Assembly (NCBI GenBank): GCA_951406725.2
Contig: OX597816.1
Span: 171,120,001-171,184,000, forward strand
Origin: Octopus vulgaris
Lineage: Eukaryota
Reading direction: 5' to 3'
Length of the DNA stretch: 64,000 nucleotides
The notes beneath the pieces are model-generated. The model searched no databases and was not told where the DNA came from. It saw only the letters and a list, made by a program, of their open reading frames with translations. A program made the position numbers and the translations under genes. This document shows, piece by piece, positions 1,324-35,694 of the stretch. Every line of letters starts with the position of its first letter. Position 1 is the stretch's first letter.

Positions 1324-2780
1324 TCAAAAACTAATCAGAGCTCTACATAATTTATAGCCTTGCATACGGTTGATAAGACAGTATGTCAAACATATCGTCA
1401 GTCTTCTGGAAGATGATGCACTCTGGGATGCCACTATGACAGAGGCACAAATGTGCAAGTCTCCTATGCAGCTGAGAAACCTCTTCTCCATCATGCTGGT
1501 GAACTGCAGATTGTCAAATCCAAACCAACTTTGGTTCAAAACAAGGAGGGGTTTTCTGAAGACATCCTTCAAAAAATTCAATATCAGTGTAACATCTTCA
1601 ATGAGGCTTGAAAATTAACAGACGACAAAGTTCGATCACTCGGTGGAAACAAACTTGAAATCTGTGGTCTTCCAGCTCCTGTCAAAGATTTTCAACACAG
1701 ATTAGCACAAGAGATAATCAGGGAAACATCATACAAGGAAAGTTTGCAAGTAGTTGTCAATGAAAAGGAACCAATTCTGGTACAGGACCAAAAAGAGGTA
1801 TACTGGCAAATTCTTACTGGTGGGGGTCTTTGTCTTAGATGCTCCTGGAGTCACAGGAAAGACTCTATTGATCAGCCTGCTCCTTGCCAACGTGAGACAG
1901 AAGAAGAAGATTGCTCCGGCTGTTGCATCCTCTGGAATTGCAGCCACACACCTAACAGGTGGAAGAAGAGCCCATTCATTATTCAAGCTGCCTCTGAACT
2001 TCATCCAAAATGAATCTCCGTTATGCAACATGTCCAAGAATACAACGTTAGCAAAGCTCCTTATAGATGCCAAATTCCTTGTCTGGGATGAGGTAATAAT
2101 GTCCCATAAGACAGCCTTTGAAGTGTTTGATACAGCACTACCAGACTTCAGAAACAATAAGAAGATCATGGGTGGTGTCACCCTTCTCATCGCTGGTGAC
2201 TTCAGGAAAACGCTGCCTGTCATTCTCAAGGGCAGATGAGCTGAATCCAAATTTGTTGTCTCTGCTTTCAGGACCTGAATGTTCATACAGATCAACTTTG
2301 TCCCTGATCAAGAACAGGCAATGCATAACCCAGTGGAGTTCCTCAATTCACTTTACCCACCAGGATTTTCACCACACATTCTGTTCATCAAAACAGGTGC
2401 TCCCATAATGCTACTATGAAACCTTGATGCACCCAGACTCTGCAGTTAAAACAGCAGTTAAAACAGTTGGAAGCAACAATAATTACAGGCAACATAATGG
2501 GTGAAAATGTCTTCATTCCAAGGATACCTCTCATCTCAAATGATCTCCCCTTTCAAATCAAATCAAGAGACTGCAGTTTCCTGTCAAACTTAGCTTTGCA
2601 ATATCCATCAACAAAGCACAAGGTCAATCTCCAAAGGTGGTGGGACTTAACCTCCTTCAACCTTGCTTCTCACATGTTCAACTGTATGCTGGATGTTCTA
2701 GAGTTGGAGATGAAAAGAACCTCTACATCATTCTCAGTGATAAACATGGCAAGACAGAAAACACAGCATATGAAGAAACA
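1324..2780 (+). pseudogene. Helitron RepHel PIF1-type helicase remnant (frameshifts and stops)
   Basis: Motifs LDAPGVTGKT (Walker A), ASSGIAA, AHSLFKLPL, LVWDEVIM, GDFRKTLPV, then VFIPRIPL and SINKAQGQS in shifted frames. Confidence 0.9.
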
Positions 2781-2942
2781 CTTACATGAATAGTAAATCC
2801 ATATCATGTACAGAAGTGTAAAACCATTGAGTGTTGAAGTATTACTATTACACTTTCACTTTTCGACTGACATGAGTGAATGTATATCTGTGTGTATGAA
2901 AGAGAAACAATGACGTGATATATTAACTGTCTGTGTGTGTGT

Positions 2943-3140
2943 GTCATCATCATCATTGTTCGACCGTGGTCGAGACAATGGAATTTACCATGCTACGCCA
3001 GACTTCACGGTCCATCATGGCATTACGGAGGTCCTGTTGCTGGATGCCTGTATCCCTGGAGATTACATCAGGGTAGGAGAGTGTGCGCCCTCTGGTATTG
3101 CGAGTAGATGGCTTCCAGAGGAGAAGAGTAGAAATTACTT
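2943..3140 (-). mobile_element. 3' end of an RTE-like LINE with (TGA)n tail
   Basis: Minus-strand translation LLLWKPSTRNTRGRTLSYPDVISRDTG...AMMDREVWRSMV...* followed by TGA repeats, typical of an RTE C-terminus. Confidence 0.65.
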
Positions 3141-3410
3141 CTTTTTCAGCTGTGTGTGTGTGTACTCAACGCACAGCTTTTCATTGTTTATAATATGTAA
3201 CTGTTTTTTCTTTTTTGGTTACGAAATAAGTCAGACAAACGGACATTTACTTATATACATGAGTTGAAAACTTTCTTTTCACATTTCACTTAACGTTTAT
3301 GTTCCATGCTAGCATGGGTTGCAGGGTTGTGTAGAAGTTGGTATCTCAGCTACTAGCAGTTGAGACCTGCGTAATCTAGACGGCGTTTTTAAATTTCATT
3401 ATTTTCTTCA

Positions 3411-3440
3411 ACCCGAGCAACACCAGGTATTTCTGCTAAT
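3411..3440 (+). mobile_element. degenerate Helitron 3' terminus (hairpin + CTAR-like end)
   Basis: acccgagcaacaccaggtatttctgctaat resembles the 3' ends of the Helitrons at 13795 and 49218 (cccgagcaacgccgggcgatactRctagt). It lies downstream of the helicase remnant in the same orientation. Confidence 0.55.
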
Positions 3441-3484
3441 GTATATGAGTGTGTGTATGTATGGGTGTGTGTGTGTGTATATAT

Positions 3485-3892
3485 TCTTTTACTCTTTTAC
3501 TTGTTTCAGTCATTTGACTGTGGCCATGCTGGAGCACCGCCTTTAGTCCGAGAAAATCGACCCCGGGACTTATTCTTTGTAAGCCCAGTACTTATTCTAT
3601 CGGTCTCTTTTGCCGAACCGCTAAGTGACGGGGACGTAAACACACCAGCATCGGTTGTCAAGCAATGCTAGGGAGACAAACACAGACACACAAACACACA
3701 CACACACATACATATATATACATATATACGACAGGCTTCTTTCAGTTTCTGTCTACCAAATCCACTCACAAGGCATTGGTCGGCCCGGGGCTATAGCAGA
3801 AGACACTTGCCCAAGATGCCACGCGGTGGGACTGAACCCGGAACCATGTGGTTGGTTAGCAAGCTACTTACCACACAGCCACTCCTGCGCCT
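3485..3892 (-). mobile_element. SINE family B (tRNA-like head, internal TA/TG microsatellite, AGTAAAAG tail)
   Basis: Matches copies at 8881, 21342, 26816 and 36790. Confidence 0.9.
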
Positions 3893-3937
3893 ATATATAT
3901 GTGTGTGTGCGTGTGTATGTATGTATGTATGTATATA

Positions 3938-4031
<94 letters not shown>

Positions 4032-4437
4032 TGGTGTGAGAACACAGCAGCATCAGTTAGTTATGGTATTAAGAAGTTGAACAGTAGGCAGTATTTACTG
4101 AGGTACGTTTTTGATTTGGCCTTGTGTTTGCTTTGCAAATGTTTTATTTCAACCGTAGGCTTCCATAGTCTTGACAAAATTAAGAATAATATGGAAATGT
4201 TATATCAAATGGAAACATAAAATTAAAGAAAAACATCTCTAAGTCATTAATTTGCAAAATAACAAATTCGAACTGATCGAATCTATACAACAACATGTAT
4301 ACCATTGGAGCTGGAATTCTATTACTTGATTCATGCCTTCTTCAAGACTAATGGAATTATGAAACTTTACTGTACTGTGCATCAACTTGTTATATTTATG
4401 CTAATTTTATTTCTCTAGATTGTATAGCAGACATCTA

Positions 4438-5165
4438 GGAGGCGCAATGGCCCAGAGGTTAGGGCAGCGGACTCGCGGTAGGAGGCGCAATGGCCCAGTG
4501 GTTAGGGCAGCGGACTCGCGGTAGGAGGCGCAATGGCCCAGTGGTTAGGGCAGCGGACTCGCGGTAGGAGGCGCAATGGCCCAGAGGTTAGGGCAGCGGA
4601 CTCGCGGTAGGAGGCGCAATGGCCCAGTGGTTAGGGCAGCGGATTCGCGGTAGGAGGCGCAATGGCCCAGTGGTTAGGGCAGCGGACTCGCGGTAGGAGG
4701 CGCAATGGCCCAGAGGTTAGGGCAGCGGACTCGCGGTAGGAGGCGCAATGGCCCAGAGGTTAGGGCAGCGGACTCGCGGTAGGAGGCGCAATGGCCCAGT
4801 GGTTAGGGCAGCGGACTCGCGGTCGTAGGATCGCGGTTTCGATTCCCAGACCGGGCGTTGTGAGTGTTTATTGAGCGAAAACACCTAAAGCTCCACGAGG
4901 CTCCGGCAGGGGATGGTGGTGATCCCTGCTGTACTCTTTCACCACAACTTTCTCTCACTCTTACTTCCTGTTTCTGTTGTAACTGTATTTCAAAGGGCCG
5001 GCCTTGTCACTCTCTGTGTCATGCTGAATATCCCCGAGAACTACGTTAAGGGTACACGTGTCTGTGGAGTGCTCAGCCACTTACACGTTAATTTCACGAG
5101 CAGGCTGTTCCGTTGATCGGATCAACCGGAACCCTCGTCGTCGTAACCGACGGAGTGCTTCCATC
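4438..5165 (+). mobile_element. SINE family C with its 43-bp 5' head tandemly repeated 9 times
   Basis: Units start at 4438, 4481, ... 4782. Body matches 17362-17749. 13-bp TSD atagcagacatct at 4424-4436 and 5166-5178. Confidence 0.92.
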
Positions 5166-7355: not shown

Positions 7356-7853
7356 ACATATACGAATATATACAAACTTGCTACAAGTTCAAATATGCTT
7401 TTGGCATATTCGAATCTGTAAGAAAGCATTCGTCATAGAGAAAGTTTCTTCCTGTGGGCAGATAGATGTAAATACACCAAGTCAGTCGGCAGCTCCTCCT
7501 AACAAGACTGGTGGATGCATGCATTTCGGAGTAGTTATCTCCTCCTCAGCACCAGAGATCGGAAAGGTAAACGCTACGAGCTGAAAGGAGAGATGGATCT
7601 CTCTTACATATTTCCGTCATCGTACTACAACCGGTCGCGCTAATCGGCGGCACAACGTAAATGAAATGCGGAGCAAAAGCACTAAGCAGTGATGCGTATG
7701 AATACAAACACGTTACCATTGCTTGAGGTATACTCGAACTTGTAAGCCACTGATTGCATTTTGTCATGAAGAAAATTTCCAATTACGTTTTATATATTCT
7801 TTTACCTGTTTCAGTCATCAGACTGTGGCTATATATAAATGTATATATGTGTA

Positions 7854-21341: not shown

Positions 21342-21500
21342 AGGCGCAGGAGTGGCTGTGTGGTAAGTAGCTTGCTTACCAACCACATGGTTCCGGGTTC
21401 AGTCCCACTGCGTGGCACCTTGGGCAAGTGCTATAGCCTTGGGCCGATTAAAGCCTTGTGAGTGGATTTGGTAGACGGAAACTGAAAGAAGCCCGTCGTA

Positions 21501-21532
<32 letters not shown>

Positions 21533-21940
21533 GGCGCGGGAGTGGCTGTGTGGTAAGTAGCTTGCTAACCAACCACATGGTTCCGGGTTCAGTCCCACTG
21601 CGTGGCATCTTGGGCAAGTGTCTTCTGCTATAGCCCCGGGCCGACCAATGCCTTGTGAGTGGATTTGGTAGACGAAAACTGAAAGAAGCCTGTCGTATAT
21701 ATGTATATATATATGAGTGTATGTGTTTGTGTGTCTGTGTTTGTCCCCCTAGCATTGCTTGACAACCGATGCTGGTGTGTTTATGTCCCCGTCACTTAGC
21801 GGTTCGGCAAAAAGAGACCGATAGAATAAGTACTGGGCTTACAAAGAATAAGTCCCGGGGTAGATTTGCTCGACTAAAAGGCGGTGCTCCAGTATGGCCG
21901 CAGTCAAATGACTGAAACAAGTAAAAGAGTAAAAGAGTAA
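21342..21940 (+). mobile_element. SINE family B: 5' half-copy followed by a full copy
   Basis: Head occurs at 21342 and again at ~21531, after a TA run. Confidence 0.9.
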
Positions 21941-25398: not shown

Positions 25399-25810
25399 AG
25401 GCGGCGAGCTGGCAGAAACGTTAGCACGCCGAGCGAAATGCTTAGCGGTATTTCGTCTGCGTTACGTTGTGAGTTCGAATTCCGCCGAGGTACTTTGCCT
25501 TTCATCCTTTCGGGGGTCGATAAATTAAGTACCAGTTACGCACTGGGGTTGATGTAATCGACTTAATACCTATGTCTGTCCTTGTTTGTCCCCTCTGTGT
25601 TTAGCCCCTTGTGGGTAGTAAAGAAATAGGTATTTCGTCTGCGTTTCGTTGTGAGTTCAAATTCCGCCGAGATCGACTTTGCCTTTCATCCTTTCGGGGT
25701 CGATAAATTAAGTACCAGTTACGCACTGGGGTCGATGTAATCGACTTAATACCTATGTCTGTCCTTGTTTGTCACCTTTGTGTTTAATCCCTTGTGGGTA
25801 ATAAAGAAAT
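25399..25810 (+). mobile_element. SINE family A with tandem duplication of its 3' ~180 bp
   Basis: 15-bp TSD aggttacatggatat at 25383-25397 and 25811-25825 encloses both units. Confidence 0.9.
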
Positions 25811-26032
25811 AGGTTACATGGATATGGTTATACGTCTGTTCACTATTTTAGATCCATTTTTTCTGCTAAGTTGAGATAGATAATTTTACAAACTTGGAAA
25901 ACTTGGATATTGTTTGGATTTCCGTTTTAGCAGTTAGATGCCTGAACTTTTGCTTTTTAAATATTAAACTATATAGCTTAAAGCAAACATAGGGCTTCAT
26001 CTAATCAGATAAATCATAAATAAATAATTTAT

Positions 26033-28339: not shown

Positions 28340-29815
28340 AAAGCTAAAGAGACCTGGCTGAATGGACAGTGTGAAGAAATTGAAAAGCGAATTCAGGTAG
28401 GATACAAAATACATCCGTAGATAAATGAGATCTCTGACAGAAAGCTGGGATCCTTAAACAGCGGATGTATCTGAGCAAAGTATGGTACCATGCTGGTTGA
28501 GAAGATTGATATTTTGAATAGATGGACAGAATATATAGATTTATTTCATGATGCGAGAGCAACCTTGCCTAGTTTTCCTGACTTCAGAAAGCCTGTTCTC
28601 TGAAGTACAAGCAGTCATCAAAATGATGAGGAAACAGAAAGCTTCTGAGCAGGACGGGATTATCATTGAGATGATAAAAGCATAAGGAATATGGAATTAG
28701 AAAACTGACAGATGTAATAAACAATATCTATGATGATGGGAAATTTCCAGATCTAAGTAAATTCATCTTTATTACACTCCCGAAGAAATTAAGAGTGGTG
28801 AACTGTGGACAACATCGCAAGATTGTTGCAAAGATCATTCTGAGAATTTTACTCCTGCGAGCAAGAAAGAGAATAACGCCTGAGGTTGGAATTGAACAGT
28901 TTAGCTTTGTAAAGGGTGCTGGTACTAGGAATACTGTTTGTTTGTTTTTTGTATTGAGAATGACAATGAAGTGGGTGGTGAAGATGCAAAAAGATGTCTT
29001 CATGCATTCCATAAATTACACAAAGGCCTTCAATAAAGTAAGATATATGTTTAATTGAAGAATTTAGTAACCTTGATCTGCATGGGAAAGACCTCCGAAT
29101 CTTGCAGAGCCTGTATTGGAACCACCAAGCCTGCATAAAGGTGGTTGGAGAATGCAATGAATACACTAGCATCAGGAGAGGGTTAGACAAGGATGTGTAA
29201 CGTCACCAGGTCTCTTCAATTACTATAGTGAATTGATTATAAGAGAGCTGGAAAAGGAAAAAGGTCTTAAGGTAGGAGGCATAAACATCACAGTCATGAG
29301 ATAAACAGATGGCACAGTCTTACTAACAGAACTGGAAAAGAAACGTTAGCGAATTTTGTGATCAGAGAAAGTGGGGGGGGGGACAGTTTGTTTATAAATT
29401 GCAAGAAGGCAGAGTGTATGGTGGTAACAAAAAAAGGAAGTCCAAAGTGCATGCTGAAAGTGAACAATCGAGGAATCCTCCTTCAACCATCTTCGAACTT
29501 TGATCACATACGACGCAAGATGTGTGAAGGAGATCAAAAGACGAATCTTGAGAAACCGTACTCTGAGCATCAAGACCAGGATCAGTATACTGAACTGCTA
29601 TGTCTGCTCTGTGCTAATGTATGGATGTGAGGCATGGTATACAACATGATAAATGAAGGTGCTTGGAGAACTGTGAAATGTGGTTCTTAAGGAGACTTTT
29701 AGGGTAGCATAGACAGACAAAACGTTTAATAAAGAAGTGATGACCCAGGCTGCTGTAAATAGGAAGCTGCTTCTTGAGATAAGCGCCAATAAATTGAGAT
29801 TCCTAAGCCACGTGA
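28340..29815 (+). pseudogene. heavily decayed RTE-clade LINE RT region
   Basis: KASEQDGIIIEMI, QFSFVKGAGTRN, YTKAFNKV, RQGCVTSPGLFNYYSE, with many stops and shifts. Confidence 0.8.
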
Positions 29816-30259: not shown

Positions 30260-32105
<1,846 letters not shown>

Positions 32106-32109
32106 CTCA

Positions 32110-32776
32110 GGCACTTGGTGTCGGTATTCCAAAGGTCTCACGGAATCTGCAGAAGATTGGTAAGGTAAAAAAGCTCGATAAATGGGTACTGCATGAACCT
32201 GATGAAAATCAAAAAGTTTGGCATTTTGAAGTGTGATCGATGCTCTTTCTGCGAAACATCACTGATCCTTTCCCTTTTCTTGACTGAATAGTCCTTGTGA
32301 CGAAAAGTGGATCCTTTATGATAACCGAAAATGATCGGGTCAATGGCTTGATCGTGATGAGTCCCTCTAACATTTCCCAAAGCCAAAGTTGCAACAGCAA
32401 AATATTATGGTGACTGTCTGGTGGTCTGCAATTTGTGTTGTCCATTGCAGCTTTCTGAAAGCCAATCAAAGCATTACAGCAGAAGTTTACTGCAATCAAC
32501 TCGCTGAAATGCATGCTCATTTGCAAAAAAAGAAACCTGCATTGGTGAATCGATGTGGCCCAATCCTGCCCCACAATAATGCAAAGCCACATGTTGCAAG
32601 AATGACGTTACAGAAACTCACAGACTTGGGATACGAGACTTTACCACATCCTCTATATTCTCTTGATCTTTCACCCACAGATGCATAGATGTTCACGGCT
32701 TATACATTTCTATTGCTAATTTTTCCAAAATAAAATTATGTTTCTGAAATCAGCCATTATTTTCGGAACAACCTAA
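32110..32776 (+). mobile_element. 5'-truncated mariner of a second subfamily
   Basis: KLDKWVLHE, IMVTVWWS, HNNAKPH, LPHPLYSLDLSPTD. Right terminus ...gaacaacctaa followed by TA. Confidence 0.85.
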
Positions 32777-33223
32777 TAGAAATAATGCACAAATTATAAC
32801 TAAAAATCTAAATTATCTCAATATTAAAGTTGATTATTTACTCCAAAGTTGATTTTGTCTTTCATAGCTTTCGGGGTCGAAAGTGTCATTTTCCCACGCC
32901 CTTATGCCAAAATTTGAAGCTAGTATTAAAGTTGGTTACTATAATTGTAATATGTTTCTGTCATTTATATGTTTATGTATAATTTACCACGTTAATTACA
33001 ATATTCTAACAACCCAGTCTATTTAGTTTAATAAGATTTCATTGAATGTGTGCATGCATGCGTATGTGTGTGTATGCGTGCGTGTATGTATGTATGAGTA
33101 TGTAACTTTACGGAGATATGATTACTAAAAGTGGAATGTAAATAACGACAGAGAAGTTTATACTGCCTATATGTGTATGCATGTGCGCATATGTATAAAA
33201 GTAAAGATATATATATATGCATC

Positions 33224-33277
<54 letters not shown>

Positions 33278-33501
33278 AATCAATATAGGGTGGCAAAAAA
33301 AAATTTTTTTAGAATTCTTTTGCCACCAGCGGCCTAGTGGGAAAAAATTAAATAGTCATAAACCATTTTAAGTTCAACATCGCAATCAAGGAACGGCCAT
33401 AATAGGCCATTCACCCACTAGAAATAACAGCCAAAAGCTTTAACCGCAAAATAACATTAATTCCGTAAACCAGGAGAAAATTGAAAAACATTTACCCTGT
33501 A

Positions 33502-33608
33502 ATTTCTTAGACGATGCACCGTTTCATCTACCGTTTAATGGTAAACTAACCTGATTAAATTAAATCAAGCCAATCCACCATAGGCCCTTAGACTCATCAG
33601 TAAGAAAT
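33502..33608 (-). ncRNA. type I hammerhead ribozyme (canonical core), unit 1
   Basis: auuucuua CUGAUGA gucua[long hairpin]uagau GAAA cggugcaucg UC uaagaaau. Confidence 0.85.
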
Positions 33609-33993
33609 AGCCAAGTCGGAACAGATATTTTTCACGAGGCATTCCTCTTGCTACCTCGGCAATATCTGACCTAAAATTTTCAAATCGTCGCACTCGCGCC
33701 AAATTTATCGGCAGCAAATAAATATAAGCCACCGATTCCATTACGGAACTAACCAGAAAATTCATAATTAATCAATATAGGGTGGCAAAAAAAATTTTTT
33801 TAGAATTCTTTTGCCACCAGCGGCCTAGTGGGAAAAAATTAAATAGTCATAAACCATTTTTAAGTTCAACATCGCAATCAAGGAACGGCCATAATAGGCC
33901 ATTCACCCACTAGAAATAACAGCCAAAAGCTTTAACCGCAAAATAACATTAATTCCGTAAACCAGGAGAAAATTGAAAAACATTTACCCTGTA

Positions 33994-34100
33994 ATTTCTT
34001 AGACGATGCACTGTTTCATCTACCGTTTAATGGTAAACTAACCTGATTAAATTAAATCAAGCCAATCCACCATAGGCCCTTAGACACATCAGTAAGAAAT
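33994..34100 (-). ncRNA. hammerhead ribozyme copy with core mutation (CUGAUGU) and stem III mismatch, unit 2
   Basis: Plus strand reads gacacatcag instead of gactcatcag, and gcactgttt instead of gcaccgttt. Confidence 0.75.
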
Positions 34101-34600
34101 AGCCAAGTCGGAACAGATATTTTTCACGAGGCATTCCTCTTGCTACCTCGGCAATATCTGACCTAAAATTTTCAAATCGTCGCACTCGCGCCAAATTTAT
34201 CGGCAGCAAATAAATATAAGCCACCGATTCCATTACGGAACTAACCAGAAAATTCATAATTAATCAATATAGGGTGGCAAAAAAAATTTTTTTAGAATTC
34301 TTTTGCCACCAGCGGCCTAGTGGGAAAAAATTAAATAGTCATAAACCATTTTTAAGTTCAACATCGCAATCAAGGAACGGCCATAATAGGCCATTCACCC
34401 ACTAGAAATAACAGCCAAAAGCTTTAACCGCAAAATAACATTAATTCCGTAAACCAGGAGAAAATTGAAAAACATTTACCCTTATATTTATTTGCTGCCG
34501 ATAAAATTGGCGCGAGTGCGACGATTTGAAAATTTTAGGTCAGATATTGCCGAGGTAGCAAGAGGAATGCCTCGTGAAAAATATCTGTTCCGACTTGGCT

Positions 34601-34707
34601 ATTTCTTACTGATGAGTCTAAGGGCCTATGGTGGATTGGCTTGATTTAATTTAATCAGGTTAGTTTACCATTAAACGGTAGATGAAACGGTGCATCGTCT
34701 AAGAAAT
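34601..34707 (+). ncRNA. type I hammerhead ribozyme (canonical core), inverted copy
   Basis: CTGATGA at 34609-34615, GAAA at 34684-34687, GTC triplet at 34697-34699; 8-bp stem I. Confidence 0.85.
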
Positions 34708-34826
34708 TACAGGGTAAATGTTTTTCAATTTTCTCCTGGTTTACGGAATTAATGTTATTTTGCGGTTAAAGCTTTTGGCTGTTATTTCTAGTGGGTGAAT
34801 GGCCTATTATGGCCGTTCCTTGATTG

Positions 34827-34895
<69 letters not shown>

Positions 34896-35313
34896 GATAA
34901 AATGTAACAACAAAAGAATGAGACCTCGATATTAGAGAAATAGAGGATTGTTTGTATGAGTACGTACATGCATATGTGTTTGTGTGGTTATGTATGTGTT
35001 TGTGTATGTATATATACATGTTTGTGTGAGTGTGTACGTATGTAGACGTTGTGAACGCAGGACGTTTGTGTCTATGTACTGTAAGAATATGGTTGCGTGT
35101 ATTTTTATCTTCTTTCTTTTTCCACCTATTAGAGTTACATCCTTTTTATTTAACGGTTTTTCATAGCGTTGATATCCGACGAGAATGTATCATAGCTATT
35201 CGTTCCGACATTGGAAACTCTGAGTACTATAACGACAACATTTTACTGTTTGTTCTAAATAATTATAACATATATATATATACTTTTTTATTAAAGCTGC
35301 AAAAATATCACTC

Positions 35314-35694
<381 letters not shown>

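Follow-up and report, generated by a model that had tools for sequence, protein, structure and literature searches.

The locus studied here raises the question of how a short non-coding repeat with a hammerhead ribozyme came to lie between two (TA)n tracts of the octopus genome, and from what kind of template it was copied. The window is the whole stretch of DNA that was analysed, 64,000 nucleotides of Octopus vulgaris (contig OX597816.1, positions 171,120,001 to 171,184,000 of the forward strand). An initial annotation of it had proposed a retrozyme copied by a Penelope-type reverse transcriptase (RT), and in the present study this was found to be the best reading, strengthened by the paired ends of the insertions, by variants fixed within them and by a test of variant phase. 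We consider it probable that the family is a non-LTR retrozyme pasted into (TA)n by the RT and endonuclease of a Penelope-like element (PLE) acting in trans, probably from a single circular RNA of 492 nt. The parts of the insertion are as follows.

33207..33275, no strand: left part of the (TA)n target tract
33276..34830, no strand: whole array insertion between the two (TA)n tracts, locus end type L+S
33276..34482, minus strand: long-ended (L) arm, 2.45 tandem units of 492 nt in ribozyme sense
33276 (3' end, in (TA)n) and unit position 270 (5' truncation), minus strand: termini of the L arm
33276..33378, minus strand: one-sided tail of about 103-107 nt, bounded by the two fixed 3' ends
34481..34830, plus strand: short-ended (S) arm covering unit positions 40-389, with its 3' end in (TA)n
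34831..34893, no strand: right part of the (TA)n target tract

The head-to-tail 492-bp repeats that had been described form a tandem array at 33276-34482 (period 492, 2.5 copies, 99% matches), and the inverted copy of about 350 bp was located at 34481-34830, where 350 nt are the full complement of 33379-33728. The two arms overlap by 2 nt at their junction (34481-34482), and (TA)n is present to the left and right, as had been stated. A GGUGGC/GCCACC hairpin sits inside the tail. The units were rightly called non-coding, since within the array there is no ORF of at least 80 aa except one that enters from the (TA)n flank; neither coding capacity nor a true LTR is apparent, and the GC content of the region is 0.36-0.37, below 50%. 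The inverted copy with its two different ends is a PLE insertion footprint, a point which the initial annotation had missed. Further out, the flanks at 28678-29630, 30318-32020, 32000-32690 and 35320-35570 hold what we take to be a decayed RTE-type LINE, hAT-like and mariner-like transposase and very abundant SINE fragments. SINE-derived tandem arrays were also seen in the window at 4436-4823, 21342-21714 and 25447-25814 (periods 43, 190 and 183), and a lone weak hammerhead-like match at 7514-7549 on the minus strand is probably due to chance.

Three copies of the hammerhead motif were read at the locus. Below, 'u' gives the position within the unit in ribozyme sense, and the predicted cleavage lies at about u259.

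33502..33608, minus strand: intact type I hammerhead motif of unit 1, with its core at 33600-33594 and cleavage predicted after 33510
33994..34100, minus strand: hammerhead motif of unit 2, mutated at core position A9 (34086) and mismatched in stem III (34012)
34601..34707, plus strand: intact type I hammerhead motif of the inverted arm, with its core at 34609-34615 and cleavage predicted after C34699

All the type I parts that had been named are there (8-bp stem I, CUGAUGA, GAAA, palindromic stem III and the GUC site), together with a 5-bp stem II. The statement that each complete unit encodes a full hammerhead holds for unit 1 and fails for unit 2, whose core (CUGAUGU, not CUGAUGA, at 34086) and stem III are mutated, and the partial unit 3 has no ribozyme; the unit 2 ribozyme is likely impaired. 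Placement on the minus strand was correct for unit 1 (33502-33608) and wrong for the intact copy at 34601-34707, which lies on the plus strand. Because the minus strand keeps only one intact ribozyme, this locus is a poor monomer source. Both further hairpins that had been noticed (ggtggcaaaa/ttttgccacc and cgaggta/tgcctcg) fall within the predicted fold, and predicted folding gave z = -4.3 for the ribozyme region and z = -5.5 for the monomer. A scan with the Hammerhead_1 model, which had been proposed as a check, matched 34603-34705 (RF00163, E 0.003 in a search space of 201 nt) with 22 bits, below the gathering score of 34; the score is reduced because stem II carries a hairpin extension of about 60 nt. 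When the Rfam scan covered 6 kb, the hammerhead was not listed, and the matches were mostly microsatellite-driven miRNA. The 10.1-11.1 pair is G-U or A-U, whereas canonical type I hammerheads have G10.1-C11.1.

The copies elsewhere in the genome suggest that this motif has been maintained. CUGANGA was found in 312 of the 317 cores read, the core being invariant apart from N7, the variants of which were picked by the search pattern and yet are also present in unselected sequences. The cleavage base is C or A across family copies. Pairing is kept in 99.5% of 776 cells (21 aligned units). Changes of both partners were seen at two positions, from A-U to G-C in stem II and from G-C to A-U at the middle of stem III; each is probably one event, and independent events are few. 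The ribozyme looks to be under selection. Pairing at the centre of stem III requires two copies, and the 12-nt palindrome of this stem is preserved; the predicted energies are -17.5 kcal/mol for the duplex and -0.2 kcal/mol for the hairpin, and the stem III pairing probability is at most 0.01 in the predicted fold of the circle. An A-C centre occurs in 7 of 337 stem III copies, and a guessed variant motif of stem III had no match in the pattern search. Animal hammerheads that are active as a dimer and silent as a monomer are described in the parts of PMC4209133 and PMC7229834 at hand. In its predicted pairing, stem III fits such a design, its activity being a prediction. As far as the excerpted reports go, cleavage was seen in only one of nine Xenopus retrozymes (10.64898/2026.07.22.740005), and ribozyme cleavage was dispensable in vitro for a PLE of the anole (PMC11167929).

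Genome-wide copies in tandem organisation, which the initial annotation had listed as a check, were found in number: there are at least 2,272 hammerhead copies of a young family. A 20-mer spanning stem III and the cleavage site has 988 exact copies genome-wide and none in the control, so the hammerhead motif is not a product of chance. Sister subfamilies with another base at N7 account for 1,284 copies that are 89-94% identical to the unit, and one of the end types is joined to (TA)n at no fewer than 829 insertion junctions; reverse-pattern controls of these exact counts gave 0 or 1 match in the 2.8 Gb assembly. A search with the unit gave 205 matches in the 40 regions scored of 950 candidates, with 95-100% identity among the 150 unit matches listed. 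Two or more consecutive intact hammerhead units are common at other loci. Assembled contigs from public runs of several studies also contain the unit, with no RNA run among the holders listed. Relative to neighbouring repeats, the depth of the unit in presumed-RNA runs is not clearly unlike that in DNA-like runs, and contigs are blind to ends, strand and circles. A joint skipping 32928-35316 in one run was not accepted as an empty allele, as it had only 24 letters on one side.

The footprint was compared across 105 loci, made up of the 40 best matches, 31 consecutive ones and 34 from the subfamilies. Back-to-back 5'-truncated arms were found in 71 loci and a single orientation in 34, with no face-to-face arrangement. 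The 3' ends are fixed at two places about 105 nt apart, S at u385-391 and L at u492 plus up to 4 nt; both come after a hairpin and TTGATT and then run into ATAT. One end of each kind (L+S) is present in 61 of the 71 two-arm loci, with no case of L+L or S+S and 10 loci with a damaged or other end. (TA)n lies on both flanks in 86 of the 105 loci and on one or both in 103. This strict pairing suggests one start site per DNA strand within an event. A few arms beside inversion junctions are riddled with deletions (L049, L164 and L225), as long reads can be at hairpins. These arms are the one observation in favour of an assembly artefact, and the notion of an artefact or a chance motif deserves virtually no credence, since the same ends recur at hundreds of independent loci and the unit is found in the public runs.

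The inverted arm might instead be a fold-back, self-primed copy of the first cDNA without a second priming on RNA. Self-priming has been proposed for PLE inversions in the available part of PMC3846280, and symmetric junctions are more frequent than expected (6 of 61 loci against 1.4). However, arm lengths are uncorrelated, and in 12 of 61 loci the pair of lengths is impossible for a single fold-back cDNA, in line with the 14.1 +/- 3.1 loci predicted by independent lengths; a fold-back also gives no reason why the second arm should always end at the other fixed site. We regard this explanation as very improbable and retain two primings. In 26 of 61 loci each of the two arms is a multimer. The cleavage site is crossed by 151 of 163 arms, at least twice by 92 of them, in searches that favoured such loci. 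Truncation of the 5' end at the cleavage site is not enriched among the long arms (4 of 115 against 2.1 expected, p = 0.16); a wider window around the site, chosen after looking, has 13 truncations against 6.1 expected. A pile-up of truncations at unit position 1 was discarded as a BLAST edge artefact.

The variants bear directly on the template. Arm ends and two homopolymer tracts were masked, and 48 main-family and 23 subfamily two-arm loci were counted. Rare variants of the main family are present in all units of both arms in 20 cases (15 loci), in several units of one arm in 6, in some units of both arms in 3 and in a single unit in 108. The subfamilies gave 20, 3, 1 and 33 for the same classes, and 9 of their 23 loci are uniform for a rare variant of their own. 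At the window locus, a variant at u386 occurs in all four pieces and in none of the 39 other loci of that set. Divergence amounts to 0.34% among the units of an arm, to 0.41% when opposite arms are compared and to 1.81% when loci are, the last figure marking a recently mobile, dispersed, multicopy family. Unit-specific variants in phase in both arms were seen once, against at most about 42 expected from a linear template as heterogeneous as present arrays; this is an upper bound, because the variants confined to one unit have later mutations and assembly errors among them, and young sources would be more uniform. The opposite arm is the nearest relative, or tied for it, for 102 of 181 units, a count that is uninformative because many loci are near-identical. 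Since rare variants are mostly fixed in both arms and phase sharing is near zero, each insertion likely derives from one monomer sequence. Together with the repeated crossing of the cleavage site without stops, the variants make a circular monomer the simplest explanation. There is a good likelihood that the template was circular or otherwise a single monomer.

As the main alternative, the same twin priming by a PLE could have used uncut linear multimers transcribed from a few young, uniform source arrays, with no circle involved and the ribozyme doing something else, e.g. trimming transcript ends. The PLE RT accepts unprocessed RNA in vitro, according to the portion of PMC11167929 available, arms cross the cleavage site freely, and identical arms would be expected from uniform sources as well. 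Against this, many sources would be needed, each uniform for its own rare variant, as the 15 of 48 and 9 of 23 loci demand, and a bottleneck of one unit would thus still be required somewhere. Repeated 5' truncation should moreover shorten the arrays, yet 35% of 176 arms are longer than two units, and phase-matched variants are nearly absent. We therefore think linear multimers unlikely and keep the circular monomer as the preferred template. Some arrays do show growth at the DNA level (L033 and the 9 one-arm multi-unit variants). L033 (G000:C10:17474895-17483871) is a one-armed array of 17 units in which variant patterns recur, and it clearly grew in this way.

The unit belongs to a clan of related families. 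Family B (535 nt, L176:1881-2415; members L171-L200 and L241-L270) aligns to the unit end to end with a score of 143 (shuffles 35 +/- 14, maximum 77.5). Its hammerhead is complete, though the stems differ, and the two-end arrangement in (TA)n is shared; the end pattern of the family has 941 matches, i.e. about 940 insertions, and 98 of the 100 listed matches of a tail-motif search belong to it. A profile search brought up further, more distant families with the same layout, and at least five homologous families keep the whole layout of the unit. Older or distant members (A-old, C, D) with hammerhead and 3' module in the same place are the following; the single-arm locus L230 lies outside the set of 71 two-arm loci.

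L223:5043-5494, L230:860-1310 and L242:2033-2464: members of A-old, C, D with hammerhead and 3' module
L233:6000-7290, L203:733-1180 and L236:5250-5449: more members of A-old, C, D with the same arrangement

Other hammerhead-like elements ending in (TA)n were met at L079:455, L109:2133, L102:6230, L154:3779, L166:6427, L113:1999 and L074:690. Some of them have inverted arms and they lack a significant alignment to family A; the genome seems rich in such elements. Conserved long helices outside the ribozyme suggest, in the predicted folds, a structured RNA lineage of its own.

For the partner enzyme, we surveyed the top-ranked PLE candidates of the genome. Two families have open frames, of 781 aa in 16 of 150 entries and of 784 aa in 4 of 150. 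The 781-aa protein consists of an RT with a C-terminal GIY-YIG, both families have a cysteine linker, and their elements end in (TA)n. By the description in the consulted part of PMC8557442, and without a tree, both would be of Neptune/Nematis type. Among autonomous PLEs, the two-arm loci whose ends can both be read number 6 (three families), and all 6 have the L+S arrangement in (TA)n; their tails are 33-43 nt long, and the unit tail of about 105 nt has 2.5-3 times this length. In the sampled literature, PLE insertions have an inverted copy and a one-sided tail (PMC8557442, PMC3846280), and both strands of the target were extended by a PLE protein, copying having begun at two internal positions which delimit the tail, without any observed difference between the strands in vitro (PMC11167929). 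We hold with high confidence that the family is a PLE-mobilised passenger.

No homology to the unit was found downstream in the 781-aa and 784-aa families, where their 3' regions were compared, or in those of about a dozen other PLE fragments, and no RT or GIY-YIG ORF adjoins a unit in the family A and B loci scanned or in a tblastn screen. Family B and the 784-aa family have a 10-nt terminal word in common, noticed after the fact. We infer the partner enzyme, because none of the sampled PLEs is homologous to the unit and just this word is shared. Close matches to the published octopus Naiad were only broken relics among 150 scored; one fragment nearly matches that element, in keeping with an octopus as host. 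In one locus (L104), a frame of 479 aa (1268-2704) overlaps the 781-aa frame (2626-4968) from upstream and has no Pfam match over the cut-off; as canonical PLEs have one ORF, this could be an additional one or else reflect a frameshift or an intron. Downstream of the ORF, the 3' regions of the 781-aa family (L101-L117) contain variable tandem repeats with TGACGTC and ATTGG words, which may be promoter elements, and the only hammerhead-like motif there is degenerate.

These results also concern the idea that the units are pLTRs of an unfound autonomous PLE, or solo insertions which unequal crossing-over later multiplied into a minisatellite and gene conversion made uniform. Such an origin has been proposed for vertebrate retrozymes in the retrieved text of 10.64898/2026.07.22.740005, DNA-level duplication did occur in L033 and a few other arrays, and our survey was limited to top-ranked candidates. 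What makes it quite improbable is that the screened A and B loci have no ORF beside the units, that the two arms, so often both multimeric, share variants about as closely as the units of one arm, and that the layout of the whole unit has been kept across the homologous families of the clan.

On the retrozyme reading, the cycle would begin with transcription of an array. Neighbouring ribozymes would pair through their palindromic stem III and, by predicted cleavage as dimers, release 492-nt monomers, and by analogy with axolotl and mussel retrozymes the monomer would be ligated into a circle in which the lone ribozyme would be nearly inactive. The presumed PLE enzyme would cut both (TA)n strands, one of which would be primed at about unit position 389 and the other about 105 nt downstream, a hairpin and UUGAUU preceding both sites. 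Each cDNA would then run a variable length round the template and across the cleavage site, presumably as a rolling circle, and the two would be joined back to back. A few arrays have afterwards been enlarged by DNA-level duplication. A further-reaching reading, which we rate as possible and on balance slightly doubtful, is that the clan of at least five ribozyme RNAs of about 470-540 nt consists of viroid-like circles with a conserved fold of their own, not leftovers of PLE repeats, and that a PLE dimer loads on one circle at two fixed sites, its two active sites going round the circle simultaneously and giving two multimeric arms in one (TA)n break. If true, rolling-circle reverse transcription, with one start site per target strand, would be recorded directly in the genome by these arrays.

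Copying of retrozyme circles by PLEs has been proposed since 2020 from co-occurrence and partial homology, and the insertion cycle of PLEs is still partly undefined. Hundreds of young insertions are now available, and their ends and variants indicate a single monomer as template and one start on each DNA strand. The 492-nt RNA and two candidate enzymes with open frames in one genome make a defined system for in vitro work, and if a small RNA circle is written into (TA)n, it would be of interest to RNA-templated genome writing.

Judged by its sequence, the family is to be classed with the animal non-LTR retrozymes by all features open to test, homology to pLTRs excepted, with self-cleavage as a prediction (PMC7761336 in part is a further source for the class). 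As in the animal non-LTR retrozymes covered by the available text of PMC7229834 and 10.64898/2026.07.22.740005, the tandem units are non-coding with one type I hammerhead each, GC is low, the fold is self-paired, PLEs co-occur, and the weak palindromic stem III implies dimer cleavage, as in axolotl. The octopus unit has 492 nt, whereas invertebrate units typically have 170-400 and those of the 2026 survey 51-972, and its stem II is longer by about 60 nt. In Xenopus 21 of 57 families are homologous to pLTRs according to the same excerpt of 10.64898/2026.07.22.740005; for the octopus unit, no homology to the sampled pLTRs was found. The strict two-arm, two-end footprint in (TA)n is not described in the portions of these retrozyme papers at hand, and a count of the words 'inverted' and 'microsatellite' in the main text of PMC7229834 gave 0. 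With the Neptune/Nematis-type endonuclease-positive PLEs, so far as PMC8557442, PMC3846280 and PMC11167929 in part describe them, the family shares truncation at the 5' end, incomplete tandem copies, a shortened copy in inverse orientation, a tail on one side, insertion into (TA)n, a pair of internal start sites and a hammerhead motif. It differs from them in the lack of an ORF, in a tail of about 105 nt instead of 30-40, in a full-size and not minimal ribozyme and in up to 17 repeats. Satellite-2 of newt and axolotl likewise has hammerhead tandem repeats that likely work as a dimer (PMC7229834, as excerpted), whereas the octopus family forms hundreds of short dispersed arrays with fixed ends and is of another sequence and size. 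In a literature search of incomplete coverage, outside Repbase and Dfam, we found no octopus retrozyme and no such footprint in retrozymes. The retrozyme class is known, and what appears to be new is the octopus family and the mechanistic record kept in its insertions.
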